This document shows positions 6,378-59,597 of a stretch of DNA of 64,000 nucleotides, piece after piece. The first letter of the stretch is position 1, and every line of letters starts with the position of its first letter. Under the pieces are notes generated by a model, which was not told the DNA's origin, did not search any database, and saw only the letters and a program-made list of their open reading frames with translations. The DNA lies in assembly GCA_963783305.1 (NCBI GenBank), contig CAWAMW010000002.1:512001-576000 (forward strand), read 5' to 3'. Origin of the DNA: an uncultured Gemmatimonadales bacterium (GTDB lineage Bacteria > Gemmatimonadota > Gemmatimonadetes > Longimicrobiales > RSA9). The position numbers were made by a program, and so were the translations under genes.

Positions 6378-6920
6378 CTACTGCGCCTTCGCTTTCATCG
6401 ACTCCGGCAGCACCACCGTGTCGATCACGTGGATCACCCCGTTCGACGCCTCCACGTTCGCCTGCACCACCGTGGCGTCATCCACCTTCACCTGGCCGTC
6501 GATAAACCGCACATTCAGCGACTCGCCCTGCACCGTCACCGGACGCACCTCCCCCGCGTCCACCACGTCCTTGGCCATCACCCTGCCCGACAGCACGTGG
6601 TACGTCAGCACCGCCGTCAGCGCCTCTTTGTCCTGCAGCAGCGCGGCCAGCGTCCCCTCCGGCAGCTTCGCGAAGGCGGCATCCGTCGGCGCAAACACCG
6701 TGAACGGGCCCTCCGAGCTCAACGTCTCCACCAGACCCGCCGCCGTCACCGCCTTCAGCAGCGTCTCGAAGCTACCCGCCTCCACCGCCACGTCCACGAT
6801 CGTCTTCTTCGCCATCGCCTCATCTCCCTTGTTGTGATACTGCGCCGCCGCCTCGGTCGGCGCGCCCAGGGCGGCCACCACGGCCACCGCCACTGCCATT
6901 GCCTTCAGCTCGTCGCGCAT
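6378..6920 (-). CDS. Secreted fasciclin (FAS1) domain protein
   Basis: Signal peptide; GPFTVFAPTDAAF, LTYHV and NGVIHVIDTV motifs. A GGAGGA RBS precedes the ATG at 6920. Confidence 0.92.
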   Translation of the reverse strand: MRDELKAMAVAVAVVAALGAPTEAAAQYHNKGDEAMAKKTIVDVAVEAGSFETLLKAVTAAGLVETLSSEGPFTVFAPTDAAFAKLPEGTLAALLQDKEALTAVLTYHVLSGRVMAKDVVDAGEVRPVTVQGESLNVRFIDGQVKVDDATVVQANVEASNGVIHVIDTVVLPESMKAKAQ

Positions 6921-6955
6921 CTCGTCCTCCTGTTGCTCGAGTTCCATTCCGCCCG

Positions 6956-7043
6956 TTTGTATAGCCTTTGTACATGGACAGTACCCTGCGATGGCCCCTT
7001 TGTCAAGTGTTTGTACAGGCATGGTATTGACAATAGCTGTACA
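6956..7043. promoter_or_regulatory. Divergent promoters with CarH-type 11-bp-periodic TnnACA operator repeats
   Basis: TTTGT pairs at 6956/6967 and 6999/7010 (TnnACA on the minus strand); TTGACA at 7027 and TGTACA at 7038 on plus. The minus-strand TTGACA (7001-7006) is followed after 17 bp by TACTGT. Confidence 0.7.
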
Positions 7044-7061
7044 GGCTGCCACCGTTACTCC

Positions 7062-8015
7062 ATGAACGGAACAGACGACACACCACGGCACCCCATCGGC
7101 GTGGCCAGCACGCGCTCGGGCGTGAGCCCGGATTTGATTCGGGCGTGGGAGCGACGCTACGGTGCGACGGAGCCGGCGCGGGACGCGGCGGGACAGCGCC
7201 TGTACAGCGATGCGGACCTGGAGCGGCTGCGCCTGCTGCGTCTGGCGACGGAGGGGGGTCGAACCATCAGCCAGGTGGCGGGGCTCGATCAGGAGTCGCT
7301 GTCGGAGCTGGTGCGTGGGGACGAGGCGGCGCGGGCGGAACGAATCGCGGGCGGTACGGGCGCGGGCGGGGCGGGTGTCGGGGCGTCGCGGGAGGGGGAG
7401 GAGGTGGTGGCGGCGCTGGAGGCGCGAGCCCGGAGCCTGGACGGTGAGGGTCTGGAGGCGGCGTTGCGGGGGCGGCTGGTGGAGCTGGGCTTTGTGCGGT
7501 TCGTCGAAGAGGTGGCGGCGCCGCTGCTGCGGCGGTTGGGGGACGGGTGGCACGCGGGGGTGGTGACGCCGGCGCAGGAGCACCTTGCGACGGTGGCGGT
7601 GCGTCGGAGCCTGGAGGGGGCGCGGGAGGCGGCGCCGGCGGGGGGCGAGGAGCAGAGGGTGGTGGTGGTGGGGACGGTGGCCGGCGAGCGTCACGAGGCG
7701 GGAGCGTTGGCCGTGGCGGCGGCGGCCCGGCTGGCGGGGTGCCGGGTGGTCTACCTGGGAGTGGACCTGCCGGTGTCGGATCTGGCGGACGCGGCGCGGG
7801 CATCCGGAGCGGACGCGGTCTGCGTGAGCGGGACATACCGGTCATCGGGGGCGGGACCGGTGGAGCGGCTGCGGGCGCTGCGTGTGGCGCTCCCGGCGGC
7901 GGTAGAACTGTTCGCTGGGGGTGCGGCCGTGGCGGAGGCGCGGGAAGAGCTGGAGGGGCTGGGGATCCGGTGCCCGGCAGGGCTGGCGGCGTTGACCGCT
8001 GCGCTGCGGGAGTAG
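7062..8015 (+). CDS. carH: CarH/LitR-type B12-binding MerR photoreceptor repressor
   Basis: MerR HTH (IRAWERRYG); W-x9-EH motif (WHAGVVTPAQEH); ExH B12 motif (GERHEAG) and YLGVDLP. Confidence 0.85.
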   Translation: MNGTDDTPRHPIGVASTRSGVSPDLIRAWERRYGATEPARDAAGQRLYSDADLERLRLLRLATEGGRTISQVAGLDQESLSELVRGDEAARAERIAGGTGAGGAGVGASREGEEVVAALEARARSLDGEGLEAALRGRLVELGFVRFVEEVAAPLLRRLGDGWHAGVVTPAQEHLATVAVRRSLEGAREAAPAGGEEQRVVVVGTVAGERHEAGALAVAAAARLAGCRVVYLGVDLPVSDLADAARASGADAVCVSGTYRSSGAGPVERLRALRVALPAAVELFAGGAAVAEAREELEGLGIRCPAGLAALTAALRE

Positions 8016-28625: not shown

Positions 28626-28740
28626 CTCAGCCCGGGCAGAGGGCCCGCGTCCCGGTGTGGCTCGGAACGTCTCCGTTCCGGCGCAATTCCTGCCCTACGA
28701 TGATTGATTGCTGAACCCTATCTCCGTCCGAGGACTACAG

Positions 28741-29292
28741 ATGGCTCTTGATCCCCACGATCCCGAACGCGTGCGGCACGCCGAGCTGCCACTCGAGCGC
28801 GACCTGTTCCTGCGCTCGCTCCTGCGGGAGCTGTCCGGCACGCTGGAGGACGTGGTAGGGCTGCAGGAAGCGAGCGGATTCGTCTCGGTGGTGGGGCAGC
28901 GGATCGGGGACCAGATCAACCGGGACTACCGTACCGCCCTGCGCGTCGATCGCCTCACGCGGGAGGAGGTCGCCCGTGTCCTGGTGGACCTGAAACGCCG
29001 GATCCAGGGCGATTTTTACATCATCGAGGAGAGCGACGAGCGGATCGTCCTCGGGAATCGGGCGTGCCCCTTCGGCGACAAGGTGAAGGGGCGCCCGTCG
29101 CTGTGCATGATGACGTCGAACGTATTCGGGACCATCGCCGCCGAGAACACCGGGTACGGGAAGGTGGAGCTGAAGGAGACGATCGCCTCGGGGGCCCCGG
29201 AGTGCCGCGTCGTCGTATATCTGGAGCCGACCGAGGAGGCGGACGCCGCCCCCGGTCGCGAGTACTTCGAGCTGCGGGACGCGACGCCGTGA
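28741..29292 (+). CDS. Methanogen output domain 1 (MetOD1, V4R-like) protein
   Basis: [35 protein letters not shown] and CRVVVYL motifs. Confidence 0.8.
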
Positions 29293-31382
29293 ATCCGGCC
29301 GATTTCCGTGCCTTTGCCCACCTCCTCCCGGATGCCTGCCTGCTCGTCCAGGCCGACGGAGAGGTCCTGGGCGTCAACCCGGCGGCCGAGCGACTCCTGC
29401 GAACGAGCCGCGAAACCCTCGAGGGCGGGAACCTGCAGCGGCTCGTGGCCGGCGCGCTCGACGACGTCCGCAGCTACCTGGAGTCGGCGTCTCGCACCCG
29501 CGGGCCGGTCTCGGGCGGGCTGACCTTCCGCGGCGAGGAGGAGATCGCGTGTACGTGCCTCGGCGGGCTGGTCGCGCCGCCGCGGGAGGGTGAGCCGGCC
29601 CTGCTCCTCCTGCGCATGCAGGAGCGCGGGGCCTCCACCAATCGGTTCCGACTGTTGAACGAACAGGTGGACCGCCTGAGCGCAGAAGTGCGCCGCCGGC
29701 AGCGGGCGGAGCGCGAGCTGGAACAGCGGGCCAGGCAGCTCGAGGAGATCACGGCTCGGCTGGAGCGGAACCGGGCGCTGCTCGAGGAGTCGCAGCGGAG
29801 CGCCTGCGTCGGTAGCTGGGAGTGGGACGTCGGGACCGGGGCGCTCACCTGGTCGGAGGAGCTGTACCGGATCTACGGCCTGGACCCCGCCGCCGGCGAG
29901 ATCACCTTCGATCGCTTCCAGTCCCTGATCCACCCCGAAGACCAGGACCGGGTCCGGGAGATCATCGCAGGGGCGATCGAGAGCGGTGAGCCATTCTCCT
30001 TCGAACACCGGATCGTGCGGCCGGACGGCGCCATCCGCACGCTCCACGGCCGCGGCCGCGGGATCACAACGCCCGACGGCCGGGTCACCCGGATGCTGGG
30101 CAGCGGTCAGGACATCACCGGGCGGAAGCGGGAGGAGGAGCGGGCTCACTTTCTCGCCGAGGCCGGCCACCTGCTCACGACATCGCTGGACTACCAGGAG
30201 ACGCTCCGGCGGGTGGCGGAGCTGGCGGTGCCGCACATCGCTGACTGGGCCGCCGTGGACGTGATCCATGACGGCGAGATCCGTCGTCTGGCCGTAGCGC
30301 ACCCCGACCCCGCCAAGCTCGCCATCGTCGAGGAGATCGCCCGCCGCTGGCCGGAGGATTCGCAGAAGCCCGGTGTCATCACCCGGGTGCAGCGCACGGG
30401 GGAGGCAATCCTGCTCCCGGAGATCCCCGGGTCCATCCTGGAGGAGAGCGCGCAGAGCGAGGAGCACCTGCGCATGCTGAAGGAGCTCCGGCTGCGGTCG
30501 GGGATGATCGTCCCCCTGGAGGCCCGCGATCAGATTCTCGGCTCCATCACGTTCATCGCCTCGGACTCCGGCCGCACCTTCGGGGAGCCCGACCTGAACC
30601 TCGCTCGCGAGCTGGCCGACCGCGCCGCACTCGCCGTGGACAACGCGCGCCTCTACCAGGAATCACAACAGGCGAGCCGGGCCCGCGACGACCTGATGGC
30701 CATCGTCTCTCACGACCTCCGTAGCCCGCTGAACGCCGTCCTCGCCGGGGCCAGCCTCCTCCTCGACGTACCGCTGAGCCAGGAGAAACGCGAGCGCCAG
30801 TACGCCTCGATAAAACGCTCCGCCGAGCGCATGGAGCGGCTCACCCGCGATCTTCTCGATATCACACGGATCGAGTCGGGACACCTGAAGGTCGAGCCCC
30901 GGTCCGAGGACGTGCGGTCGCTGGTGGCCGAGGCGCTCGAGGCCGCCACCTTCGCCGCCGGACGCACCGGCGTGTTCCTCTCCGCCGAGGTGCCCGACAA
31001 CCTCCCCCCGGCACGGGCCGACCACGCGCGCGTGCTGCAGGTACTGGACAACCTCCTGTCCAACGCCATCCGCCACACGCCGGAGGGTGGACGGGTTACG
31101 GCGGCCGTGGACTCCCTGCGGGACACCCTCCGGTTCCGCGTGAGCGACACGGGGGGTGGGATACCGGACGAGCTGCGGGACCACGTCTTCGACCGCTACT
31201 GGCAGGGAGAGCACGCGGACCACGGGGGCGCCGGTCTCGGTCTGCCCATTGCCAAAGGCATCGTGGACGCGCACGGAGGCCGGATCTGGCTCCAGACCAC
31301 CCCCGGACACGGCACAACGTTCTACTTCACCCTCCCTATTGCCACCGGTCAGGACGAGGAGGACGGCTCCGCCGTCGCCTGA
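29289..31382 (+). CDS. Soluble PAS-PAS-GAF sensor histidine kinase
   Basis: PAS ([18 protein letters not shown]), GAF, H-box [20 protein letters not shown] and GLGL motifs; GTGA overlap with MetOD1. Confidence 0.93.
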
Positions 31383-31399: not shown

Positions 31400-31954
31400 T
31401 CAGTGGCCGGAACCCGTGGTGTCGCTGGGAGCCGGTTCCACGGGGAGCATGAGGTCCTCGAGGAAGAACGCCGCCAGCTCGGCCCGACCGGACAGCGACG
31501 CCTTGCGGTAGACCGAGGCTGCATGCTGCCGCACCGTCTGGTCGCTCCGGTCGGTGCTGCGAGCAATGGACTTGTGGCTGTGCCCCTTCATCAGTAGCAG
31601 CGCCACCTCGCGCTCGGCGGGCGTGAGCTCCCACCGCGAGAACTGCTCGCTGATGGCCCGGCCGAACCCGTGGAGGGCGTGCTCCGCGCTGTCCCGGAAC
31701 GCATCCCGCTCCGCCTTGCGCGCCTCCAGGGACCGACGCAGCTCACGCACGGAACGGGCACTCCGCCACCAGCCCAGCCAGAGCGTGGTCGCCATGAGCA
31801 TGGCGCCCGTGAGCATCAGCGTCTCGAACACGACGTGGAAGCTGAGCCAGCTCTCCGGCTGATCCAGCATCAGGTCGATGGTCCCGCCGATGATGATCGA
31901 GGCCAGGGCGATGGTCAGAACGCCCCTCAAGCGGCCCGAGGTCAGATCGTCCAT
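31400..31954 (-). CDS. Membrane-anchored LuxR-family regulator (2 TM + HTH)
   Basis: Two TM helices containing HVVFE, then WELTPAEREVALLLMKG...TVRQHA..VYRK. Confidence 0.88.
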   Translation of the reverse strand: MDDLTSGRLRGVLTIALASIIIGGTIDLMLDQPESWLSFHVVFETLMLTGAMLMATTLWLGWWRSARSVRELRRSLEARKAERDAFRDSAEHALHGFGRAISEQFSRWELTPAEREVALLLMKGHSHKSIARSTDRSDQTVRQHAASVYRKASLSGRAELAAFFLEDLMLPVEPAPSDTTGSGH

Positions 31955-32088
31955 TCTCCCGATCTACATCCGTTGCACCCCTCCCCCCCGGGCGCCGCTC
32001 GCGGGGTGGAGGATCATACATATGTTGGATAGCGGCCGTGAGCTCCGTCAGGCACATTTGGCGGGACTACTATCAACAAGGAGCGCGC

Positions 32089-32604
32089 ATGCTGCCCGAC
32101 CCCCTGCATCCCGCCGTGGTTCATTTTCCGATTGTCCTGTCCGCCCTCCTGCCAATCTTCGCGCTGGGCGCTCTCTGGGCAAATCGGCGGGGTGCCCATT
32201 CCCGATGGACCTGGGCGATCCCGCTGGCCCTCTCGGCCGTCATGACCCTGAGCGGTTGGGTCTCCGTGGAGGCCGGTGAGGATCAGGGGGAGAGGGTGGA
32301 GGACGTCGTGGGAGAATCGGCGCTGCACGAGCATGAAGAGGGTGGCGAGCGGTTCCTCGTCCTCTCCGGCCTCCTCCTCTTCGTCGCTGCGGCGGGTCTG
32401 ATCGGCGGCACCGTGGGCACCGCCGGTCGGTACCTGACGACGGCCGGGTCGCTGGTCGTGCTCTGGGCAGGGGTCGCGGTGGGCAGCTCGGGCGGAGCGC
32501 TCGTGTATGAGCACGGCGCCGCCGCGGCGTACGTCACGTCTCCGTCAGGGAACGCTCCGACGGCGGCCATTCAGGAAAACCACGAAGAGGAGGACGAACG
32601 ATGA
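32089..32604 (+). CDS. DUF2231-like 4-TM membrane protein
   Basis: LHPAVVHFPI, HEHEE and GGALVYEHG motifs; AAGGAG RBS. Confidence 0.78.
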   Translation: MLPDPLHPAVVHFPIVLSALLPIFALGALWANRRGAHSRWTWAIPLALSAVMTLSGWVSVEAGEDQGERVEDVVGESALHEHEEGGERFLVLSGLLLFVAAAGLIGGTVGTAGRYLTTAGSLVVLWAGVAVGSSGGALVYEHGAAAAYVTSPSGNAPTAAIQENHEEEDER

Positions 32605-33839
32605 TCGGATTCCGACTGCCCGCCCCACTGACCCTGGCTGCATCCGCCACGGTCGTAACCCTTGTCGCGATCTTCCTCCTGCTCGCGAGCCCACCGCGCG
32701 ACGCGGAAGCCATCCCGGCCTTCGCCCGCCAGTACAACGTCTCGTGCTCCCTCTGCCACGCACCGGCGCCGCGCCTCACGGAGTTCGGCGAGCAGTTCGC
32801 CGCCAACGGATTCCGCCTGGCGCTCGAAGAAGAGCCGACGAAGGTGGTCGACACGGGCGACCCGCTCCTCCAGCTGATGGAAGATCTGCCGCTCGCGATT
32901 CGGTTCGACGCGTACTTCCAGGCGCGCGCCGGCGGGGTTGGCCCCGAGACCGATTTCCAGACGCCCTGGGCCATCAAGCTGCTCTCCGGTGGCCGGGTCG
33001 CCGAGAAGGTCAGCTACTACATGTACTTCTTCATGTCCGAGCGCGGCGAGATCGCCGGACTGGAGGACGCGTTCATCCAGTTCAGCGACGTGGGCGGCAG
33101 CGGTGTCGACCTCCTCGTTGGCCAGTTCCAGGTCTCGGATCCCCTCTTCAAGCGGGAGCTCCGGCTGGAGTTCGAGGACTACCAGGCGTACCGCGTTCGG
33201 GTCGGTGAGACCCGCGCGGACCTCACCTACGACCGCGGGCTCCTGGCTGCCTTCTCACCATGGGAGGGCGCCGACGCATCGCTCCAGCTCCTCAATGGCC
33301 GCGGAATCGAACCCGCGGGTGAGCACCGGACCTACGACTCCGACAGCGGTAAGACCCTCGCCGCACGACTCTCCCAGGACCTTGGGACGTTCCGCTTGGG
33401 CGGCTTCGGCTACTACGGCGAGGAGACGACCGACGGGGTTCGCAACCGCATCCGCGTGCTCGGCCCCGACCTGAGCGTGGCGCTCGGACCCACTCTCGGG
33501 CTGAATGCACAGTACCTCTGGAGGGCAGACGACCGGCCGTTCTTCACCGATGCCGCCCCCACCGATACCGACGTCCAGATGGGCTTCGCCGAGCTGCTCT
33601 GGGCCCCGCAGGGGAACGCCGGGCGCTGGTTCTTCACCGCCCTCTACAACCATGTTGAGGCCGATTCACCGCTCTTCACGGTCCGACAGGGGGAAGCGGG
33701 GCTTCTGGAGAGCTACCGGTCCGGCGCGCTCGGAGCGAACTTCGTCATGGCCCGCAACGTTCGACTCACCAGCGAGATCCAGTACGACCTCGACCGCGAC
33801 GCCGCCCGCTTCGTGGCCGGCTTCATGTCCGCATTCTGA
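32601..33839 (+). CDS. Cyc2-like monoheme cytochrome fused to an outer-membrane beta-barrel
   Basis: Signal peptide ending AEA, then IPAFARQYNVSCSLCHAPAPRLTEFGEQFAANGF; amphipathic beta strands; C-terminal Phe. Confidence 0.78.
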   Translation: MIGFRLPAPLTLAASATVVTLVAIFLLLASPPRDAEAIPAFARQYNVSCSLCHAPAPRLTEFGEQFAANGFRLALEEEPTKVVDTGDPLLQLMEDLPLAIRFDAYFQARAGGVGPETDFQTPWAIKLLSGGRVAEKVSYYMYFFMSERGEIAGLEDAFIQFSDVGGSGVDLLVGQFQVSDPLFKRELRLEFEDYQAYRVRVGETRADLTYDRGLLAAFSPWEGADASLQLLNGRGIEPAGEHRTYDSDSGKTLAARLSQDLGTFRLGGFGYYGEETTDGVRNRIRVLGPDLSVALGPTLGLNAQYLWRADDRPFFTDAAPTDTDVQMGFAELLWAPQGNAGRWFFTALYNHVEADSPLFTVRQGEAGLLESYRSGALGANFVMARNVRLTSEIQYDLDRDAARFVAGFMSAF

Positions 33840-33858
33840 CCGACTGCAGGAGGATACC

Positions 33859-34236
33859 ATGCGACTCTACACGATGCTCACCGCGCTCTCGATCGGCGCT
33901 CTCCTCGCGCTGCCTGGACTCGGCACGGCGCGGACCGCGGCCACGCAGGACCCCGGCGGTGAAAAGATCTTCCGGGGGAAGGGCAACTGCTTCACCTGCC
34001 ACGGCCCCGCCGGAAAGGGGACGCCGCTGGCTCCCGACCTGACCGACGATGTGTGGCTGGAGTTCGAGGGAACGCCCGCCCGCGCGGATATCGAGGACCT
34101 GGTGCGGCGCGGAGTGCCGCAACCGGTCCGCCATCCGGCCCCCATGCCCGCCATGGGCGGCGCACGCCTCAGCGATGACGAGATCACCGCGGTGGCCGAA
34201 TACGTCCTCTCTCTCAGCGGAGCTCCCGATGCATAG
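33859..34236 (+). CDS. Periplasmic monoheme class I cytochrome c
   Basis: Signal peptide, CFTCH, APDLTD and PMPAMG (axial Met); AGGAGG RBS. Confidence 0.9.
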   Translation: MRLYTMLTALSIGALLALPGLGTARTAATQDPGGEKIFRGKGNCFTCHGPAGKGTPLAPDLTDDVWLEFEGTPARADIEDLVRRGVPQPVRHPAPMPAMGGARLSDDEITAVAEYVLSLSGAPDA

Positions 34237-34765
34237 CTGGACCCGGGCCATTCCTGCCCTGCCCGTCCTGCTGGCAGTCGCTGTCACGGGCGCCGCGTGC
34301 GGCAGCCCCGATGAGGCCCCGGAGATGGAGACGGCGGAAGTCACCAGGGTCGACTCGGGGAGCATCGCGGCCACCGGGGCGATGGACACGGCGGCGGCGG
34401 GGACGCGGGCAGCCCTTCCCTCCCTGTTCACCATCATGCTGGGCCTGCAGGGGGACCTCGACCGGATCAGCCACGGCCTCTGGACGGAGAGCTACGACAG
34501 CATCGCCGCGGCCGCCACGGGCGTGGCGGACCACCCGAGGGTCCCGCCCGAGGAGGCGTCCCTCATCGCGGGGATCCTCGGCTCGGACATGGCCCGCTTC
34601 CAGGCGCTGGACAGGGAGGTGCACGACCTCTCGGTGCAACTGGCCGAGCAGGCGCGAGCGCGGGACCTCGAGGCCGTTCTCGAGACCGACGCCCGGCTCC
34701 GCACGGGATGCGTAGAATGCCACACCACCTTCCGCGAGCGCCTGCGGGCAGGAGTGGATCGGTAG
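34229..34765 (+). CDS. Cytochrome c'-like (class II) lipoprotein
   Basis: Lipobox GAAC, helical body and C-terminal CVECHTTFR. Confidence 0.8.
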   Translation: MHSWTRAIPALPVLLAVAVTGAACGSPDEAPEMETAEVTRVDSGSIAATGAMDTAAAGTRAALPSLFTIMLGLQGDLDRISHGLWTESYDSIAAAATGVADHPRVPPEEASLIAGILGSDMARFQALDREVHDLSVQLAEQARARDLEAVLETDARLRTGCVECHTTFRERLRAGVDR

Positions 34766-35919
34766 CCAGGGCAAGGGCCGCCGCCCCGCTGCTCTTCCTG
34801 TTCCTCGGAGGCGCGGCGGCGTGCGACCGCGACGGGACTCCCGACCGGGACCCCGCTTCGAGCGCCCCGGCCGCCACGGTCGCCACGGGCGACAGGAGCC
34901 CCGACGCCGCCACTCCCGGCTCTCCGCCGCGCCACGTGCTCATTCGGACGCCGGACGGCCCGACCGCCCGGGGTCTCGACAGCGCACACCTCGCCCGCGC
35001 CCTGGCGCTGGCCGACACGCTCCCGCGCCTGCGCTGCCTCATGATCGCGCGGCACGGGGAGACGCTGACGGAGCACTGCAGGCCGGGGTACGACCCCGCC
35101 GCTCCGGCGAACGTGAAGTCCGTATCGAAGAGCGTGCTCTCGGCACTGGTGGGGATCGCCATCGACGAGGGACACCTCGCCGGTGTGGAGCAGAGGCTGG
35201 TGCCGCTCCTGGAGTCCCATCTGGATACCCTCGCGGACCCGCGCAAGCGGGACATCACCATCGGGCACCTGCTGTCCATGCAGTCCGGTCTCGAGCGTAC
35301 CTCCGGTCGGAACTACGGTGCGTGGGTCAGCAGCCCCGACTGGGTGAGGGACGCCATCCGGCGACCCATGGAGGCGGATCCCGGCGGACGAATGCTCTAC
35401 AGCACCGGCAACTACCACCTCCTCTCCGCCATCCTCACGGACGCCACCGGGTCGAGCACCTGGGAGTATGCCCGGTCCCGGCTGGGCGACCCACTCGGGG
35501 TCCGCGTCCCGCGCTGGCCTACGGACCCTCAGGGCATCTACTTCGGGGGCAACGACATGCGGCTCTCTCCGCGCGCCATGGTCGCCTTCGGTGAGCTCTA
35601 CCGGAACGGTGGACGTAGCGGAGACGATCAGGTCGTGCCGGAAGACTGGGTCCGTAGTTCCCTGGAGCCCCGCACCCGCTCCCCCTGGAGCGGCAACCGC
35701 TACGGCTATGGCTGGTTCCTGGCCCGGGCGGGGCGGCACCCGATGTTCTTCGCCTGGGGCTACGGCGGCCAGTTCATCTTCGTGGTGCCGGACCTGGAGC
35801 TGACGGTCGTCACCACCTCCGACCCCGCCGCGCCCCGCGGGGGCGGCCACCTCCGCGCGATCCATGACCTGCTGGACAATGAGATCGTCCCGGCGGCCGA
35901 GGTCGGAAGCGGGGACTGA
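34708..35919 (+). CDS. AmpC/NylB-family serine hydrolase lipoprotein (intact active site; start uncertain)
   Basis: SVSK (SxxK), LLSMQSG, YSTGN and AWGYGGQ motifs. Confidence 0.85.
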   Translation: MRRMPHHLPRAPAGRSGSVARARAAAPLLFLFLGGAAACDRDGTPDRDPASSAPAATVATGDRSPDAATPGSPPRHVLIRTPDGPTARGLDSAHLARALALADTLPRLRCLMIARHGETLTEHCRPGYDPAAPANVKSVSKSVLSALVGIAIDEGHLAGVEQRLVPLLESHLDTLADPRKRDITIGHLLSMQSGLERTSGRNYGAWVSSPDWVRDAIRRPMEADPGGRMLYSTGNYHLLSAILTDATGSSTWEYARSRLGDPLGVRVPRWPTDPQGIYFGGNDMRLSPRAMVAFGELYRNGGRSGDDQVVPEDWVRSSLEPRTRSPWSGNRYGYGWFLARAGRHPMFFAWGYGGQFIFVVPDLELTVVTTSDPAAPRGGGHLRAIHDLLDNEIVPAAEVGSGD

Positions 35920-35954: not shown

Positions 35955-38906
35955 CTACCTGGAGGAGGCCGCCCCCGAGCGCAGCTCCTCGAAAAGCGCC
36001 GTCGTCTCCGCTTCGGGCTCCGCCTCCAGTTCGCGGCTCAGCAGTTCCACCACACGCGCATAATGACGGAGTGCCCGGGTCCTCTCTCCCGATCGGGCCC
36101 ATGCCGTCATGAGCCTCCGATGGACCTCCTCGTCCAGCTCCTCGCGCGCCGCAAGCGCCTCGTACACGCGGGCGGCCGCCGCCGGGTCGGTGGCCTCCAG
36201 CGCGGTGCCGAGCGCCAGGTGCAGCTCGACGGATGCCCGGCGGACGCCGTCACGGTGGGGATCGATCCAACGACCGACCGCCTCTCCCTCCAGCAGTTCG
36301 CCCCGACACAGCGCCAGCGCGTCCCGGATGGCATCCGCGTCAGCGACAGAGCGCTTCGTGACACGGGCCCTGGCCGTAAACTCCTCCACGTCGAAGCGGA
36401 TCCGCAGATCCGGCGAGAGCCGATATCGCTCCCCCTCCAGCACGATCCACTCGGGGTGCCTCAGCGCCTTCCGGAGATGGTGGAGCGTGACGTGGAAGCT
36501 GTTCTTGACCTTCGACCGCGGGCCCCCCGGCCAGAGCGCCTCGCCGATCTGGTCCCGGCTGCCGCCGAGCGGGTTCAGGAGCAGGTAGATCAGTAGCTCG
36601 CGGGGCTTTCCGTACGTGAAGCGCTCCGCCTCCAGCTCCTCTCCCTCCACACGCACGACGAGCGGCCCGAGCGCGTCCACCCGGAGCGCCGGCGATTCCT
36701 CGGTCTGCGGCGCGCGTCCCGCCTCCACACCGCCAGCCTTCACGCTCGCCGCGCCTTCGGACCGCGCCCCGTTCCCCCCGGAACGGGCACCAGCCGCCGT
36801 CGCAGTGGAATCGGAGCCGAACGGCTTTGCGTCCTCTGTACCCGCGACCAGCTCACCGAGGACGTCGTCCAGCGACAGCCGTCGCCCTTCCTCCCAGACG
36901 CGCTCGATTTCGTCGGCTCCCGCCGCCGCCTTCATCCGCACCACAGTTGCCGCGGCGCGCCGTGCGTCGAGGGGGAACGGGGTCGCACCGATCAGCTCAC
37001 GCGCCGCCTCGGCGGCTCCCATGAGCCGCGCCGCTTCCACCACACGACCCCGGCCTGCCGCGATCTCACCCATATAGGCGATCCCGATGGTGAGGAAGTA
37101 GAAGGAGGGATCGCGGCGGGAGGCCGTCAGGGCTTCCCGCACCAGCGCCTCGGCCTCTTCCAGTCGGTTTCGGGTGATCTGCACACCGGCCAGGTTCTGG
37201 AGCGCCACGGCAAGCTCCCGCTCCGCCCCGAAGAGCCGGGCCAGTCGAACGCCCTCACGGTTCAGCTCTTCGGCACGCTCGTATTCACCCCGGCCCATGG
37301 CACTGCTCCCCTGCAGCAGTGCGGCCAGGCGGAGCCCGTAGAGGTCGTCGTGGTCGCGGAACCAGGAGGCCGCCCGGCCGCAGAGGTCCATGGCGCGGGA
37401 ATCGCCCTCGCCGGCGTAGGTCATCCCCAGGTAGTTCGTCGCGTACGCCTCGAGACGCCCGTCACCCGCTTCCGCGGCCAGCGCTACGGCCTCCTCCAGG
37501 TCCGGGCGCGCCTCCGCCGCCCGGGCGCGCAGCGCAGCCAGCGCCCCGGCCGCGAAAAGCAGCGAAGCCCGCGCGTGGCCTCGCTCCGCGGCCTCCGGGA
37601 GCGCCCGCGCTCCGCGGATCCACCGGCCGGCCTCGGACCAGTGGCGGGTCGAGAACCAGAACCACCACAGCTTCCCGACCAGTCGGACGTGAAGCCCGCT
37701 ATCGTGATCGAAGCTCCACGCCAGCGCGGACCGGACATTGTCCATTTCCGGCTCCAGCCGCTCCACCCAGAACCGGCGCTCTCGCCGGATCAGGTGCGGC
37801 TCGGCCTCCACCACGCGCTCGAGCATGTACTCCGCGTGCCGGTGCCGCGTCTCCGCCTCTTCGCCGGCGCCCTTCAGCTCCTCCGTGGCGTACTGACGCA
37901 CCGCCTCCAGCAGGTGATAGCGCGCGAACCCGCCGTGCTCACGGACCACGAGCATCGAGCGGTCCACCAGGTGGGCGACCAGGTCGAGCACCTCCGGGCC
38001 CTCGATCTCACCCGCAGCCCCGACTCGCTCAGCTCCCTCCAGGCCGAACCCGCCCCGGAAGACTGCCACCCGCCGTAGAAGGACCCGCGCAGGCTCCCGC
38101 AGCAGGTCGTGGCTCCACTCGATCGTCGCCCGCAGCGTCCGATGCCGCGGCACCGCGATGCGGCTGCCCGACGTGAGGACCCCGAACACGTCGTCCAGCC
38201 GGGCCAGCAGGTCCGCCGGGCCCAGGACCTTCACCCGCGCCGCCGCGAGCTCGAGGGCCAGCGGAATGCCATCCAGACGGCGGCAGATCTCCGCCACAGC
38301 GCCAGCATTATTGTTATCGAGCGCGAAACCGGGCGCAACGTCACGGGCCCGCTCCACGAAGAGGCGCACCGCCTCCGAGCGCTCCGCCGCCTCGAGGGGC
38401 TCTCCGGTCCTGCCGTCCTCCGGCAGGGAGAGGGGCGGGACCAGCCATGCGCGCTCCCCCGGCACGCCCAGCGCCTCGCGGCTGGTGGCCAGCACCGCGA
38501 GGCCGGGGCAGCTCAGCAGCAGCTGGTGAACCGCCTCCGTGCAGGCGTCCACCAGGTGCTCGCAGTTGTCCAGCACCAGGAGCCCCTCATGGTCGCGGAG
38601 CAGACGCGCCAGGTCGTCCAGACCTCCCGCGCCCAACTCCTCGGCTCGCCGCACCGCCTCGGCGATCGTGGGCACCACCAGCGCGGGCTCACGAAGCGCC
38701 GCCAGCTCGACCCAGTCCACCGCACTCGACCAACGCGGGTCGCTTACCAGTGCCAGCGCCAGCCGCGTCTTTCCACTCCCGCCGGCGCCCGTGAGCGTGA
38801 CCAGCCTCGAGCGCGCGACGAGCTCCGCGATCTGCTCCAGCTCGGGCCCACGGCCGATGAAGCTGGTCAGCTCCGTGGGAATTCCGTACGGGTGTCGCTG
38901 CTTCAT
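35955..38906 (-). CDS. STAND NTPase-TPR regulator with a C-terminal wHTH/BTAD (SARP) module
   Basis: FIGRGPEL, GAGGSGKT, LVLDNCEH and GIPLAL motifs; TPRs; then ALGPLVV, KPRELLIYL, ALWP, DEEVHRRLM and EPEAET. Confidence 0.9.
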   Translation of the reverse strand: MKQRHPYGIPTELTSFIGRGPELEQIAELVARSRLVTLTGAGGSGKTRLALALVSDPRWSSAVDWVELAALREPALVVPTIAEAVRRAEELGAGGLDDLARLLRDHEGLLVLDNCEHLVDACTEAVHQLLLSCPGLAVLATSREALGVPGERAWLVPPLSLPEDGRTGEPLEAAERSEAVRLFVERARDVAPGFALDNNNAGAVAEICRRLDGIPLALELAAARVKVLGPADLLARLDDVFGVLTSGSRIAVPRHRTLRATIEWSHDLLREPARVLLRRVAVFRGGFGLEGAERVGAAGEIEGPEVLDLVAHLVDRSMLVVREHGGFARYHLLEAVRQYATEELKGAGEEAETRHRHAEYMLERVVEAEPHLIRRERRFWVERLEPEMDNVRSALAWSFDHDSGLHVRLVGKLWWFWFSTRHWSEAGRWIRGARALPEAAERGHARASLLFAAGALAALRARAAEARPDLEEAVALAAEAGDGRLEAYATNYLGMTYAGEGDSRAMDLCGRAASWFRDHDDLYGLRLAALLQGSSAMGRGEYERAEELNREGVRLARLFGAERELAVALQNLAGVQITRNRLEEAEALVREALTASRRDPSFYFLTIGIAYMGEIAAGRGRVVEAARLMGAAEAARELIGATPFPLDARRAAATVVRMKAAAGADEIERVWEEGRRLSLDDVLGELVAGTEDAKPFGSDSTATAAGARSGGNGARSEGAASVKAGGVEAGRAPQTEESPALRVDALGPLVVRVEGEELEAERFTYGKPRELLIYLLLNPLGGSRDQIGEALWPGGPRSKVKNSFHVTLHHLRKALRHPEWIVLEGERYRLSPDLRIRFDVEEFTARARVTKRSVADADAIRDALALCRGELLEGEAVGRWIDPHRDGVRRASVELHLALGTALEATDPAAAARVYEALAAREELDEEVHRRLMTAWARSGERTRALRHYARVVELLSRELEAEPEAETTALFEELRSGAASSR

Positions 38907-44839: not shown

Positions 44840-47008
44840 TTGAAACGGACTCTCGACCTCCCCATCCGGGGCATGGACTGCGCTTCCTGCGCCGCGCACG
44901 TGCGCTCCGCCCTCGAGCGCGTCGATGGCGTGGATTCCGCCGATGTCCGCGTCGCCGCGGAGAAGGCCGTGGTCGAATACGACGACAGCCGCACCCGCTT
45001 CGACGACCTCGCCCACGCGGTCGTTTCCGCCGGATACTCCGTCGCTGCCGATCGACTGCCCCCGGGCATGCCGGACGGCGAAGATGGCGCGTCGGGTGCC
45101 GCAGCCGAGCGCGCCGCGGAGGCACGGGGATTCACTCGCCGCGCGCTCGGCGTGACCGGGCTCCTCTTCGGCTTCATCCTCGTCGTCGTCGTCGCGGGCG
45201 AGTGGCTCGGCCTCTTCGACATGGCCACCGAACGCGTGCCGTTCCCTCTTGGCGCCGCCATCGTCGCCCTGGTGGGCTGGCCGGCGTTCCGGGGAGTCAT
45301 CCGCTCCGCGCTCCGCGGCCGCGTCATCTCCCACACCCTCATGACCGTCGGGGTCGTGGCCGCCCTCCTCATCGGACAGTGGGTGACCGCCGCCGTCGTC
45401 GCCTTCTTCATGCGCGTCGGCGACTTCGTCGAGGGCTACACCATGGACCGGGGCCGCGACGCGCTCCGGGAGCTCGAGGCCCTCGCCCCCACCACAGCCA
45501 GGGTGGATCGGGACGGCGCCGAGGAGGAGATCCCCGTCGCCTCCGTCCGCCCGGGCGACCTTGTCGTGGTCCGACCCGGGGAGCGTATCCCCGTGGACGG
45601 CCGCGTCCTAGACGGCAGCGCCTCCGTCGAGCAGGCCACCATCACCGGGGAGTCCATGCCCGTCGACGTGACGGCAGGACACGACGTGTTCGCCGCCACC
45701 ATCGCCCGGGGCGGCGCGCTTCGCATCGAGGTCACCCGCGTCGGCGCTGATGCGACCTTCGGCCGGATCATCAGGATGGTCGAGGACGCCGAGGGGCAGC
45801 GAGGGCGCGTACAGAGCTTCGCCGACCGCTTCAGCACCTGGTACCTGCCGATCGTGGGCACCATCGCCCTGGCCACGTACCTGGTCCGGGGCGACGTCCT
45901 GGCCACCGCCGCCGTCCTCGTCGTCGCCTGCTCGTGCGCCTTCGCCATCGCCACACCCGTGGCCATGCTCGCCTCCATTGGCACCGCCGCCCGCCGCGGG
46001 CTCCTCATCAAGGGCGGCGCCTACATCGAGGCCCTCGCACGCGCCGACGTGGTGCTGGTGGACAAGACCGGCACGTTCACCGCGGGACGACCCAGCGTGG
46101 CCGAGATCGTCGCGCTCGACGGCTCCGAGCCCGACGAGGTGCTCCGCCTCGCCGCCTCCGCCGAGCGCGATTCAGAACACCCTCTCGCCGCCGCCATCCG
46201 CCACGAGGCCACCCGCCGCGGGCTCAGCCTCTCCGCACCCGCACACTTCCGCGCACTCGAGGGCGCCGGCATCGCGGCCGAGGTCGAGGGTCGACAGATC
46301 CTCGTCGGAAGCGCAGAGATCGCGCTCAGAACGGACGTCCCGGCCTCCCGGCCACCCGAGGCGGCTCCGACCGAGATCGAGAGGCTACGGGCCTCCGGAA
46401 TGACCGTTGCCCACGTCCGTCGCGACGGTCAGCTCATCGGCGCGCTGGGGCTCCGCGACGAGATCCGCCCGGATGTTCCCGCCGCCGTCGCCGAGCTGCG
46501 GGAAATGGGATTCCGCACCATTGAGCTGCTCACCGGCGACCACGAGCAGGCCACCGCGCCCGTGGCAGGAAGTCTGGGGGTCCAGCACCGCGCGGGGCTG
46601 CTCCCGGAGGACAAGATCCGGATCGTGCGAGAGTACCAGGAGCGCGGCCACACCGTGGTCATGATCGGCGATGGCGTGAACGACGCCCCCGCCCTCGCCC
46701 AGGCCGACGTGGGCATTGCCATGGGCGCCGCCGGTACCGACCTCGCCCTCGAGGTCGCCCACGTCGCCCTCCTCCGCGACGACTGGAGCCTCGTCCCCGA
46801 GGCTTTCCGCACCGCCCGGCGCACCATGGGCATCGTGAAGGGCAACTTCGGCCTGACGGGCGTCTACAACGTGGTGGGCCTCACCCTCGCCGCCACCGGC
46901 ATCCTACCCCCCATCCTGGCCGCCGCCGCACAGTCCATCCCCGACCTAGGGATCCTCGGGAACTCGGCACGGCTACTGAAACGACGGGACCCCCCCGGCC
47001 GGGGGTGA
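44840..47008 (+). CDS. Heavy-metal P1B-type ATPase
   Basis: HMA GMDCASC, TGES, ACSCA..IATP, DKTGT, SEHPL and GDGVNDAP motifs. Confidence 0.95.
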   Translation: MKRTLDLPIRGMDCASCAAHVRSALERVDGVDSADVRVAAEKAVVEYDDSRTRFDDLAHAVVSAGYSVAADRLPPGMPDGEDGASGAAAERAAEARGFTRRALGVTGLLFGFILVVVVAGEWLGLFDMATERVPFPLGAAIVALVGWPAFRGVIRSALRGRVISHTLMTVGVVAALLIGQWVTAAVVAFFMRVGDFVEGYTMDRGRDALRELEALAPTTARVDRDGAEEEIPVASVRPGDLVVVRPGERIPVDGRVLDGSASVEQATITGESMPVDVTAGHDVFAATIARGGALRIEVTRVGADATFGRIIRMVEDAEGQRGRVQSFADRFSTWYLPIVGTIALATYLVRGDVLATAAVLVVACSCAFAIATPVAMLASIGTAARRGLLIKGGAYIEALARADVVLVDKTGTFTAGRPSVAEIVALDGSEPDEVLRLAASAERDSEHPLAAAIRHEATRRGLSLSAPAHFRALEGAGIAAEVEGRQILVGSAEIALRTDVPASRPPEAAPTEIERLRASGMTVAHVRRDGQLIGALGLRDEIRPDVPAAVAELREMGFRTIELLTGDHEQATAPVAGSLGVQHRAGLLPEDKIRIVREYQERGHTVVMIGDGVNDAPALAQADVGIAMGAAGTDLALEVAHVALLRDDWSLVPEAFRTARRTMGIVKGNFGLTGVYNVVGLTLAATGILPPILAAAAQSIPDLGILGNSARLLKRRDPPGRG

Positions 47009-57659: not shown

Positions 57660-59597
57660 TCAGATCAGCCAGTTCGCGGCCCAGGCACCCACGTACGCCA
57701 GGAACAGCATGTAGCCGAACTGGAGCGCGGGCCATTTCCACCCGGCGGTCTCACGCCGCATCACCGCTACGGTCGACATGCACTGGAGCGCGAAAGCGAA
57801 GAAGATCAGGAGCCCCACGGCAGCGCCGAGATCCAGCTGCTGGCGCAGGTTCTCCATCAGCGTGAGCGAATCCTCGCTCGCGTCCTGCACTCCGTAGATC
57901 GTGCCCAGCGTCCCGACGATCACCTCGCGCGCGGCCAGCGACGAGATCAGCCCCATGCCGATCTGCCAATCGAACCCCAGCGGGGCGATGGCCGGCTCGA
58001 TGACGTGCCCCACCTGTCCGAGCACACTCTCCTCGATGGGCGGCGGACCGTCCGGCGAGCGCGGGAACTGCGTCATGACCCACAGCACCACCGTCACCGT
58101 GAAGATGATCCGGCCGGCACGCCGCAGGAAGATCCGGCTCCGGTCCAGCAGCCGGATGCCGAGCGACCTGAGAGACGGGAGACGGTACGGCGGCAGCTCC
58201 ATGACGAAGCTGGTGGACTTACCCCTGAGCAGCGTCCGCTTCAGCAGGAAGGCGGTCACCACGGCCGCGATCGCCCCGAGGGCGTACAGCCCCAGCAGCG
58301 TTGCCGCTCGTGTACCCATGACCGGCCCCAGCACGGGGCGCTCTGGGATGAACGCCGCGATGAGCAGAGCGTACACCGGGAGCCGCGCGGAGCACGTCAT
58401 GAACGGCGTGACGAATATGGTCGCCAGCCGGTCCCGCTCGTCCTCCACCGTGCGCGCGGCGAGGATCGCCGGCACCGCGCACGCGTAGCCGCTCAGGAGC
58501 GGAAGGAAGGCCCGTCCCTGCAGCCCCACCCGGTACATGAGCCGGTCGGCGATCACCGCCGCTCGGGCCATGTAGCCCGAGTCCTCCAGGACCCCCAGGA
58601 ACAGGAAGAGGATCAGGATCTGAGGCAGGAAGACGATCACCGACCCCACGCCCGAGAAGACGCCATCGATCACCAGCGATCGGATCCACCCGTCCGGCAG
58701 CCGCGGCGCCAGCCACTCCCCGGATGAGGTGATCAGCCACTCCGTGCCGTCCATGAACGGCGTCGCCCAGGTGAAGATTGCCTGGAAAACCAGCACGACC
58801 ACCGCCAGGAACACCAGCGGACCGGCCACACGGTGCAGGAGGACGCTGTCCAGCGTGTCGCTCCACCGCGACGGCCCCGGCGACCGATACTCCGCCGAGC
58901 CCACCGCCGCTCGCACCCGCTTCCGGCGCGCCTGGAACGCGTCCACCACCGGCAACGGCGTCCGCTTCGAGACGTTGCTCACCGTCCCCGCCGGTCGCGC
59001 CGGGCCCCGTCCCCGATCCGCCGCCGCCAACAGCCACGCCCGCACACGGTCCACCCCCGCGCCCGAGCGCGCGTTCGTACGCACCACCTCCACCCCGAGC
59101 GACGACGCCAGCTCCTCGTCGCTCACCGCCCCGCCCCGCGCCTCCAGCTCGTCCGCCATGTTCAGGACCAGCAGCGTGGGCAGATCGAGCTCCAGCACCG
59201 GCTCCGCCAGCATCAGCTGACTCTCCAGCCGCGTCGAGTCCACCACCAGCACCACCGCGTCCGGGGCCCGCAGACCCGCCACTCGCCCTTCCAGCACGTC
59301 CCGCGTCACCCGCTCGTCCAGCGTGCGCGCAGAAAAGCCGTTCACACCCGGCAGATCGACCAGGTCCACTTCCCGGTCATCCGCCAGACGCGCACGGCCC
59401 ACATGCTTCTCTACCGTCACTCCCGGATAGTTCGCCACCTTCTGACGAAGGCCCGTGAGCTGATTGTACAGCGTCGTCTTTCCCGCGTTCGGCGGGCCCA
59501 CCAGCGCGACCAGCGCCGCACCGCCCCCCGTCTCGATACCCTCGCCCGGCACCCGCCCGCGCACCGGCCGGGCAGGCGCGCTCACTCCCTCCACCAC
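57660..59597 (-). CDS. feoB: Ferrous iron transporter B
   Basis: GPPNAGKT, NYPGVTVE, DLPG, LEDSGYMAR, CSARLPVY and ELPPYR motifs. Confidence 0.96.
   Translation of the reverse strand: MVEGVSAPARPVRGRVPGEGIETGGGAALVALVGPPNAGKTTLYNQLTGLRQKVANYPGVTVEKHVGRARLADDREVDLVDLPGVNGFSARTLDERVTRDVLEGRVAGLRAPDAVVLVVDSTRLESQLMLAEPVLELDLPTLLVLNMADELEARGGAVSDEELASSLGVEVVRTNARSGAGVDRVRAWLLAAADRGRGPARPAGTVSNVSKRTPLPVVDAFQARRKRVRAAVGSAEYRSPGPSRWSDTLDSVLLHRVAGPLVFLAVVVLVFQAIFTWATPFMDGTEWLITSSGEWLAPRLPDGWIRSLVIDGVFSGVGSVIVFLPQILILFLFLGVLEDSGYMARAAVIADRLMYRVGLQGRAFLPLLSGYACAVPAILAARTVEDERDRLATIFVTPFMTCSARLPVYALLIAAFIPERPVLGPVMGTRAATLLGLYALGAIAAVVTAFLLKRTLLRGKSTSFVMELPPYRLPSLRSLGIRLLDRSRIFLRRAGRIIFTVTVVLWVMTQFPRSPDGPPPIEESVLGQVGHVIEPAIAPLGFDWQIGMGLISSLAAREVIVGTLGTIYGVQDASEDSLTLMENLRQQLDLGAAVGLLIFFAFALQCMSTVAVMRRETAGWKWPALQFGYMLFLAYVGAWAANWLI

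Follow-up and report, generated by a model that had tools for sequence, protein, structure and literature searches.

A Cyc2-family cytochrome-porin with a recurrent cytochrome c partner lies beside a LuxR-DUF2231 pair in an uncultured Gemmatimonadota genome

Within the genome of an uncultured soil Gemmatimonadales bacterium (assembly GCA_963783305.1), we analysed a stretch of 64,000 nt, referred to here as the window (contig CAWAMW010000002.1, positions 512,001 to 576,000; G000:C2:512001-576000 in our own numbering). It carries a gene very probably encoding a fused cytochrome-porin of the Cyc2 family, followed by two cytochrome genes and preceded by the genes of a DUF2231-like membrane protein and of a divergent LuxR-type regulator. 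The locus lies in a 4.35-Mb genome of 17 contigs that is ~96% complete, the GC content is ~70%, and the closest relatives at the protein level come from Longimicrobiales and other Gemmatimonadota metagenome-assembled genomes (MAGs). The features of the locus, including an open reading frame (ORF) at its downstream edge, are as follows (AF2, AlphaFold2; TM, transmembrane; HTH, helix-turn-helix).

31400..31954, minus strand: LuxR/GerE regulator, 184 aa, with a GerE HTH and two N-terminal hydrophobic helices
32016..32032, plus strand: conserved box ATACATATGTTGGATAG, a degenerate copy of the box consensus described below and a candidate operator
32089..32604, plus strand (the ORF opens with a GTG at 32038): DUF2231-like 4-TM protein, 171 aa from the ATG at 32089
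32601..33839, plus strand: very probable Cyc2-family fused monohaem cytochrome-porin, 412 aa, recognized by its motif, AF2 barrel and BLASTP matches
33859..34236, plus strand: periplasmic class I monohaem cytochrome c, 125 aa, scoring over the Pfam cut-off
34229..34765, plus strand: lipoprotein class II (four-helix) cytochrome c, 178 aa, with four helices in the AF2 model and a sub-threshold PF01322 match
34708..35919, plus strand: beta-lactamase-fold lipoprotein (PF00144, 2.3e-27), overlapping the 3' end of the lipoprotein cytochrome gene

The original prediction had described four close-packed genes divergent from a LuxR gene, and the ORF list agrees with this layout, with LuxR on the minus strand and the four genes on the plus strand. 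According to that list, the regulator and the 4-TM ORF diverge across a gap of 134 nt, the 4-TM gene shares its last 4 bases with the start of the porin-cytochrome gene, so that stop and ATG overlap, the cytochrome c gene starts 19 bases past the porin-cytochrome stop, and the lipoprotein cytochrome gene overlaps the cytochrome c gene by 8 bases. The 4-TM protein likely starts at the ATG at 32089, because its homologues begin MLPDPLHP (MLPDPLHPAVVHFP). A promoter consensus scan of the locus yielded no promoter-like site, and a terminator consensus scan yielded two candidate sites, neither of them on the strand of the operon, which is roughly as many as chance would give. For the comparison of gene neighbourhoods, 80 related loci from species genomes were used, 72 of which extend at least 700 bases downstream and 71 at least 1500 bases upstream. 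It is uncertain whether the beta-lactamase-fold lipoprotein belongs to the operon; a tblastn search matched it in 1 of the 80 loci, ~2.5 kb downstream, on the opposite strand and non-adjacent.

Keffer et al. recognize Cyc2 proteins by a signal peptide, one CXXCH, the motif AXPXFAR[Q/K][T/Y], a PXL 4 residues past the haem site, a length of at least 365 residues and a 16-strand OprO/OprP-like porin domain, and the AXPXFAR[Q/K][T/Y] motif is called unique to Cyc2 in the same source (PMC8406198). In the 412-aa porin-cytochrome, a signal peptide is followed by AIPAFARQYNVSCSLCHAPAPRLTEFGEQFAANGF, and the last residue is F. The only CXXCH of the protein is the N-terminal C49-S-L-C-H53; upstream of it stands A37-I-P-A-F-A-R-Q-Y45, separated from C49 by the three residues NVS, and downstream the residues APA lead from H53 to P57-R-L59, which places PXL 4 residues past the haem site. 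This motif and its spacing are unchanged across 27 aligned relatives, with C49, C52, H53, P57 and L59 invariant, and are therefore not due to chance. The length of the protein lies above the 365-residue minimum, and the porin domain was recovered by structure prediction: the AF2 model, with a mean predicted local distance difference test (pLDDT) score of 72.8, contains 16 long strands and one 3-residue strand across residues 99-411, and the top Foldseek matches of the model are OprP (2o4v, 4.4e-12) and OprO (4rjw, 6.7e-11). The best solved matches are thus the OprP and OprO templates named for Cyc2PV-1 of Mariprofundus ferrooxydans in PMC8406198. No Pfam or NCBIfam model matches the protein, for Pfam even at E<=10, and a sequence search against the PDB returned a single match at chance level. 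The original prediction had proposed an outer-membrane barrel with the Cyc2 hallmark; the structure prediction did return a barrel of ~16 strands, and the motif, the haem site, the length and the Foldseek matches bear out the rest. We are thus highly confident that the 412-aa gene is a member of the Cyc2 family as operationally defined.

By BLASTP, the porin-cytochrome is 36% identical over 400 residues (E 3e-57) to a protein from a Gallionellaceae MAG with the same motif spacing. The clade of that protein, a Pseudomonadota clade traced via the representative P0208, includes MAG-labelled proteins of Acidiferrobacterales, Thiobacillaceae, Chromatiales and Nitrospinota. The Gallionellaceae protein would itself fall in Cluster 1, as every cyc2-bearing iron-oxidising Gallionellaceae genome has at least one Cluster 1 copy (PMC10734462). 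With Cyc2PV-1 and the Cluster 1 Gallionellaceae proteins, which are fused monohaem cytochrome-porin Fe(II) oxidases, the window protein shares the signal peptide, the AXPXFARQY-CXXCH-PXL spacing, a 16-strand OprO/OprP-like barrel and a size of ~410-440 aa. It differs from the Cluster 1 proteins in its place in a separate, well-supported Gemmatimonadota clade in a quick tree, and in its host, in which neither RuBisCO nor a cbb3 oxidase was found. In this tree, which contains no labelled Cyc2 references, the Gemmatimonadota sequences form a clade of their own with 99% support in the Shimodaira-Hasegawa-like approximate likelihood ratio test (SH-aLRT). A family profile of Cyc2-like proteins collected 3030 clusters (50% identity) at E<=1e-3; 44 of the representatives listed reach 365 aa or more, and of these 31 carry the strict motif, 11 carry near variants and 2 lack CXXCH. 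Cluster-member names for ten divergent representatives were informative in a single instance, a Gammaproteobacteria MAG, and the Atlas matches to the porin-cytochrome are unnamed clusters in other phyla, plus one cluster with 20% Porin_O_P.

Cyc2-like genes were detected (E<=1e-10) in 64 of the 301 sampled genomes of the phylum and in 3 of the 6 other genomes of the same family, with none in the same-genus genome; the genome of the window has one copy. In Gemmatimonadota, Cyc2 is an accessory gene with a patchy distribution. Its presence in this phylum is already published: Cyc2 homologues have been listed for 17 phyla, Gemmatimonadota included, and their hosts are for the most part putative heterotrophs that do not fix carbon (PMC9769843); homologues are also widely annotated in marine Gemmatimonadota (PMC11316326). 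The window protein is a further member of this kind from the phylum; the passages on these homologues in the two papers give no neighbourhood, regulator, LuxR-DUF2231 pairing or box.

The gene downstream of the porin-cytochrome encodes a 125-aa protein with a signal peptide, a single CFTCH haem site and a later PMPAM stretch, the Met of which may serve as a haem ligand. It is a class I cytochrome c, matching Cytochrome_CBB3 (5.2e-12) and Cytochrom_C (6.5e-11) with scores of 46.3 and 43.8 bits, both over the cut-off, and among solved structures it is most closely related to the haem domains of CcoP (1.4e-11). A homologue of this cytochrome occurs downstream of Cyc2 in 39 of 72 related loci, being adjacent and on the same strand in 38 of these 39. 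The periplasmic cytochrome c of the original prediction is thus upheld as a recurrent neighbour of Cyc2.

The identity of the second cytochrome, for which a c'-like protein had been proposed, holds at the level of the fold. The 178-residue lipoprotein has a lipobox Cys24, an invariant Met70 in the first helix and a C-terminal C161-V-E-C-H165, and its AF2 model (pLDDT 81.9) consists of four helices, the bundle expected of class II cytochromes. The best folds are those of cytochrome cb562 and cytochrome c', although these matches are weak (E 0.02-0.1, none <=0.001; target TM-score at most 0.68), and the score against PF01322 (Cytochrom_C_2), 21.8 bits, is below the cut-off of 26.5. In b562/c556-type proteins, the sixth haem ligand is a Met; given the invariant Met70, a six-coordinate b562/c556-like haem is therefore as likely as a true c'. 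Homologues are rare, with only 29 found in 5.8 billion clusters, 2 of which carry a precomputed PF01322 annotation. One of the homologues, P0428, has a long N-terminal extension resembling the last part of a class I cytochrome, so the adjacency of the cytochrome c and c'-like genes recurs on its contig, either as a gene fusion or because the gene call reads through.

Beyond cytochrome c, the genes around Cyc2 show no conservation. Of the 71 loci that reach far enough upstream, 5 have LuxR and 4 have DUF2231, while a c'-like gene lies near Cyc2 in 1 of 80 loci. Hence, the original picture of the cluster as one unit holds in the synteny survey for the Cyc2-cytochrome c pair, but not for the regulator, the 4-TM protein or the c'-like cytochrome. 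This lack of conservation would also be expected if the genes were neighbours by accident, without a shared function. However, the genes overlap by 4 and by 8 bases, and the order LuxR-DUF2231-Cyc2 recurs in four other loci (L006, L020, L029 and L033) at 54-59% Cyc2 identity; accidental adjacency thus appears extremely unlikely. Judging from these comparisons, what had been described as a four-gene wire under a LuxR regulator is instead two modules side by side, Cyc2 with cytochrome c on one hand, and LuxR with DUF2231 on the other.

The second module stands by itself in other genomes. The LuxR protein has a GerE HTH (PF00196) scoring 35 bits against a cut-off of 23.5, and it matches the NCBIfam LIC13292-family model at 6.6e-20, below the cut-off. 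As read from its sequence, two N-terminal TM helices are connected by a periplasmic loop of ~8 residues and followed by the C-terminal HTH. The 4-TM protein is DUF2231-like: the window copy scores 16.2 bits against PF09990, below the cut-off of 26.4, but 62-73% of its nearest Atlas clusters' content is PF09990, and a paralogue in the same genome that is 60% identical passes the cut-off with 31.5 bits. Across 24 aligned homologues of each protein, D27, D31, H40 and E44 are invariant in the TM and loop part of LuxR, and H7, H12, H82 and E71 are invariant in the DUF2231-like protein. When the positive-inside rule is applied by eye, these His, Asp and Glu residues would be placed on the periplasmic face, which may point to a ligand site formed jointly by LuxR and DUF2231.

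In other genomes, a LuxR homologue is divergent from and adjacent to the DUF2231 gene in 27 of 29 loci, while a Cyc2-like gene lies within 1.5 kb in 0 of 29; no further gene is conserved downstream of the pair in these loci. The genome under study has a second such pair, with LuxR on the minus and DUF2231 on the plus strand (C2:494396-495547, L085), ~17 kb before the window. Its proteins are 64% and 60% identical to those of the first pair, its intergenic region contains two boxes of its own, and no cytochrome gene follows it. DUF2231 homologues occur in 61 of the 301 phylum genomes, and none was found in the six remaining genomes of the family. LuxR and DUF2231 are thus a separate conserved two-gene unit that stands here directly before Cyc2. 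Because DUF2231 pairs with LuxR and not with Cyc2, it is more likely the partner of the regulator than the inner-membrane end of an electron wire, and the latter role, proposed in the original prediction, finds no support, also in view of the second pair without cytochromes and of the few Cyc2 loci with DUF2231. A literature search on DUF2231 found only an unrelated database paper, and one on LIC13292 found none.

The signalling genes beside Cyc2 allow a different reading, in which the porin and the cytochromes form a sensing device that signals Fe(II) or redox conditions outside the cell to the LuxR-DUF2231 pair, or elsewhere to a hybrid histidine kinase, and so changes expression. Indeed, a hybrid kinase/receiver/Hpt protein of ~1020 aa is encoded immediately after Cyc2 in 9 of the 80 loci, in addition to the LuxR genes found upstream in some loci; DUF2231 is translationally coupled to Cyc2 here, the invariant Asp, His and Glu residues lie in the membrane and periplasmic parts of both proteins of the pair, and a search for the RuBisCO large subunit found no autotrophy gene. 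On the other hand, the commonest partner of Cyc2 is a plain soluble cytochrome c, the LuxR-DUF2231 pair is present without Cyc2 in all 29 loci of other genomes and so needs no Cyc2 input, and a regulator beside an operon normally controls it and is not fed by it. We therefore consider a sensing function unlikely. The hybrid kinase itself combines an N-terminal part of several TM helices with two receiver domains and an Hpt domain; it is encoded on the same strand, ~58 bases after the Cyc2-like gene, where it replaces cytochrome c, in loci that include L015, L026, L029, L039, L056 and four others.

A conserved sequence was found in the intergenic regions of the LuxR-DUF2231 pairs. The core ATGTCGGAT (<=1 mismatch) is present in 31 of 34 LuxR-divergent intergenic regions, always oriented towards DUF2231, compared with 0.57 of 34 in shuffled sequences. 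The wider box consensus, GTCRnA-TGTCGGAT, resembles two tandem GTCGGAT heptamers, and several intergenic regions contain two boxes, 38-59 nt apart. In the window, the box at 32016..32032 reads towards DUF2231 and is located ~58 nt before the ATG at 32089. The 12-mer box pattern occurs once in the window (0.08 expected) and 8 times genome-wide, against 1 for the reversed control; with the position weight matrix (PWM), matches scoring >14 number 52 genome-wide against 5, and the window box, with a score of 19.5, is the third-best match in the 4.35-Mb genome. Other top PWM matches in the genome were located inside genes and dropped as chance. The box is thus a candidate operator of the LuxR protein. 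The original prediction had assigned the LuxR protein as the divergent regulator of the operon genes, which is in line with both the divergence and the conserved box in the shared intergenic region.

The best match to the box in the genome (23.3, a near-perfect consensus) lies elsewhere, ~110 nt upstream of a gene for a di-haem cytochrome c peroxidase (CCP_MauG, 7e-50) at G000:C2:510008-511084, just outside the window, and a second box site is situated 49 nt from it. This raises the possibility of a regulon for defence against periplasmic oxidants or Fe(II) and peroxide, in which one regulator would drive both Cyc2 and the peroxidase, removing Fenton reagents, or in which Cyc2 would feed the peroxidase. 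Against this, the peroxidase gene is 33 kb from the Cyc2 gene, the case concerns one site in one genome, and in 29 other genomes that carry the LuxR-DUF2231 pair, exact box matches elsewhere than at the pair number 14, none of them near a peroxidase or cytochrome gene. We take the link between box and peroxidase as a lead for this genome only, since it was not seen in the 29 others, and regard a defence regulon as very unlikely.

Separately, the region around this peroxidase gene is rich in cytochromes. The stretch G000:C2:506000-513200 (L084), which runs into the window at 135-1016, encodes a weakly Porin_O_P-like protein of 338 aa, a multihaem protein of 640 aa of the CCP_MauG/TsdA type, a di-haem cytochrome c peroxidase of 358 aa followed by a small ORF with two CXXCH, a c4-like dihaem cytochrome and a SoxA/TsdA-type dihaem cytochrome, the last at 135-1016 of the window.

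For the operon as a whole, our preferred reading is an uptake of electrons at the outer membrane. The Cyc2 porin would take single electrons, likely those of Fe(II) in solution or else of some other small reductant entering the pore, and these would pass via the periplasmic cytochrome c and the four-helix lipoprotein cytochrome to haem-copper oxidases; the donor, the direction of flow and the hand-over to the cytochrome and the oxidases are what we infer for the pathway. Cyc2, cytochrome c and the lipoprotein cytochrome are predicted to be co-transcribed, and the LuxR-DUF2231 pair would likely act as the sensor-regulator that switches the operon through the tandem-heptamer box. No RuBisCO large subunit and no CcoO of a cbb3 oxidase were found in the ~96% complete genome, which differs in this respect from the classical neutrophilic iron oxidisers, and at least 6 loci have full-length matches to haem-copper oxidase subunit I; therefore, the organism looks like an aerobic heterotroph, in agreement with the published picture of Cyc2-bearing Gemmatimonadota and other phyla (PMC9769843). 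With no RuBisCO found, the pathway would provide supplementary energy or Fe(II) detoxification rather than autotrophic growth. Oxidation of Fe(II) feeding the aerobic chain is, in our view, the most likely function of this locus, and from the sequence evidence we hold this whole mechanism with about even confidence.

The iron label may itself be wrong, if the system transfers electrons outward to Fe(III), Mn or humics, or if it oxidises some other small reductant. Cyc2 may have other functions (PMC8406198), oxidation and reduction are not separable from the annotation of Gemmatimonadota Cyc2 homologues (PMC11316326), and the family is present in many heterotrophic phyla (PMC9769843). Nevertheless, the three members of the family that have been tested biochemically all oxidise Fe(II), and a narrow pore of 16 strands with one haem would need dissolved Fe2+ inside (PMC8406198), so that another substrate or a reverse flow appears to be quite unlikely.

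Several observations weigh against the preferred reading of Fe(II) oxidation under the control of the LuxR-DUF2231 pair. The function of Cyc2 is described as uncertain and in need of verification away from the characterised clades (PMC8406198), and in the quick tree a branch with 97% SH-aLRT support parts the Gemmatimonadota sequences from the clade containing the Gallionellaceae protein. The haem domain is of low confidence in the AF2 model, with pLDDT <50 at residues 31-54, as is expected because the cofactor is absent from the model. No homologue of cytochrome c was found downstream in 33 of 72 Cyc2 loci, and the hybrid kinase takes its place in some; Pfam scans of the flanking genes found no cupredoxin, dihaem Cyc1 or oxidase in the cluster. 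The lack of RuBisCO and CcoO matches mentioned above belongs here as well. With regard to regulation, the window box carries other bases at two consensus positions that hardly vary across the 39 sites, binding of the LuxR protein to the box is a deduction, and the sequencing runs containing the locus comprise 3 DNA runs of one study and no RNA run.

Comparison with known systems helps to delimit what is present here. The rus operon of Acidithiobacillus ferrooxidans contains cyc2, cyc1, coxBACD and rus. It shares with the window cluster an outer-membrane Cyc2 encoded together with periplasmic c-type cytochrome(s) in one unit, but the cupredoxin rusticyanin, the dihaem c4-type Cyc1 and the oxidase genes are absent from the window cluster, where the partners are a monohaem class I and a four-helix class II cytochrome. 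The locus therefore does not show the gene content, cupredoxin, dihaem Cyc1 and oxidase with cyc2, of a rus-operon type Fe(II) pathway. On the regulatory side, NarL/FixJ-type regulators with a GerE HTH bind heptamer repeats, and the LuxR protein resembles them in its GerE HTH and in the candidate tandem-heptamer operator. It differs from them by having no receiver domain; instead, it has a two-helix anchor with invariant Asp, His and Glu residues and an obligate 4-TM DUF2231 neighbour. As a tentative and rather doubtful suggestion from these sequence features, LuxR and its membrane-bound DUF2231 neighbour might be an undescribed two-protein sensor, in which the shared His/Asp/Glu site would bind a metal or haem and report periplasmic Fe(II) or redox state through the tandem GTCGGAT operator, and which would have captured the Cyc2 electron-uptake operon and possibly the cytochrome c peroxidase.

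The remaining genes of the window include further regulators. A protein with the MetOD1 domain (methanogen output domain 1) is encoded at 28708-29292 on the plus strand, followed by a PAS-PAS-GAF histidine kinase at 29064-31382, also on the plus strand and convergent with the LuxR gene. By tblastn, this kinase had matches in 16 of the 80 Cyc2 loci, the best being 41-43% identical in L030, L051 and L061, although such kinases are too common for this to carry weight. A 983-aa STAND/AAA-TPR-BTAD regulator is encoded at 35955-38906 on the minus strand; in L051, a homologue with 38% identity to it lies ~3.2 kb past the Cyc2-like gene, on its downstream side. At 6429-8012 on the plus strand, a MerR HTH is joined to B12-binding domains; we take this protein to be a CarH-like light- or B12-dependent regulator. 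Among the metal transporters, a heavy-metal P-type ATPase with an HMA domain (44840-47005, plus strand) and the ferrous-iron transporter FeoB (57663-59597, minus strand) are located 11 kb and 24 kb downstream of the operon, respectively.

Iron oxidation by microbes is usually recognized in genomes by Cyc2, and many surveys count homologues in heterotrophic phyla as iron oxidisers without regard to their context. The locus described here provides a well-defined case from Gemmatimonadota, in which cytochrome c is a recurrent partner and neither RuBisCO nor a cbb3 oxidase was found in the genome, and would be a reasonable candidate for a test of Fe(II) oxidation. The LuxR-DUF2231 pair with its clear candidate operator is the more useful lead, as it suggests a testable role for DUF2231 and offers a handle on the signal to which the Cyc2 operon would respond.

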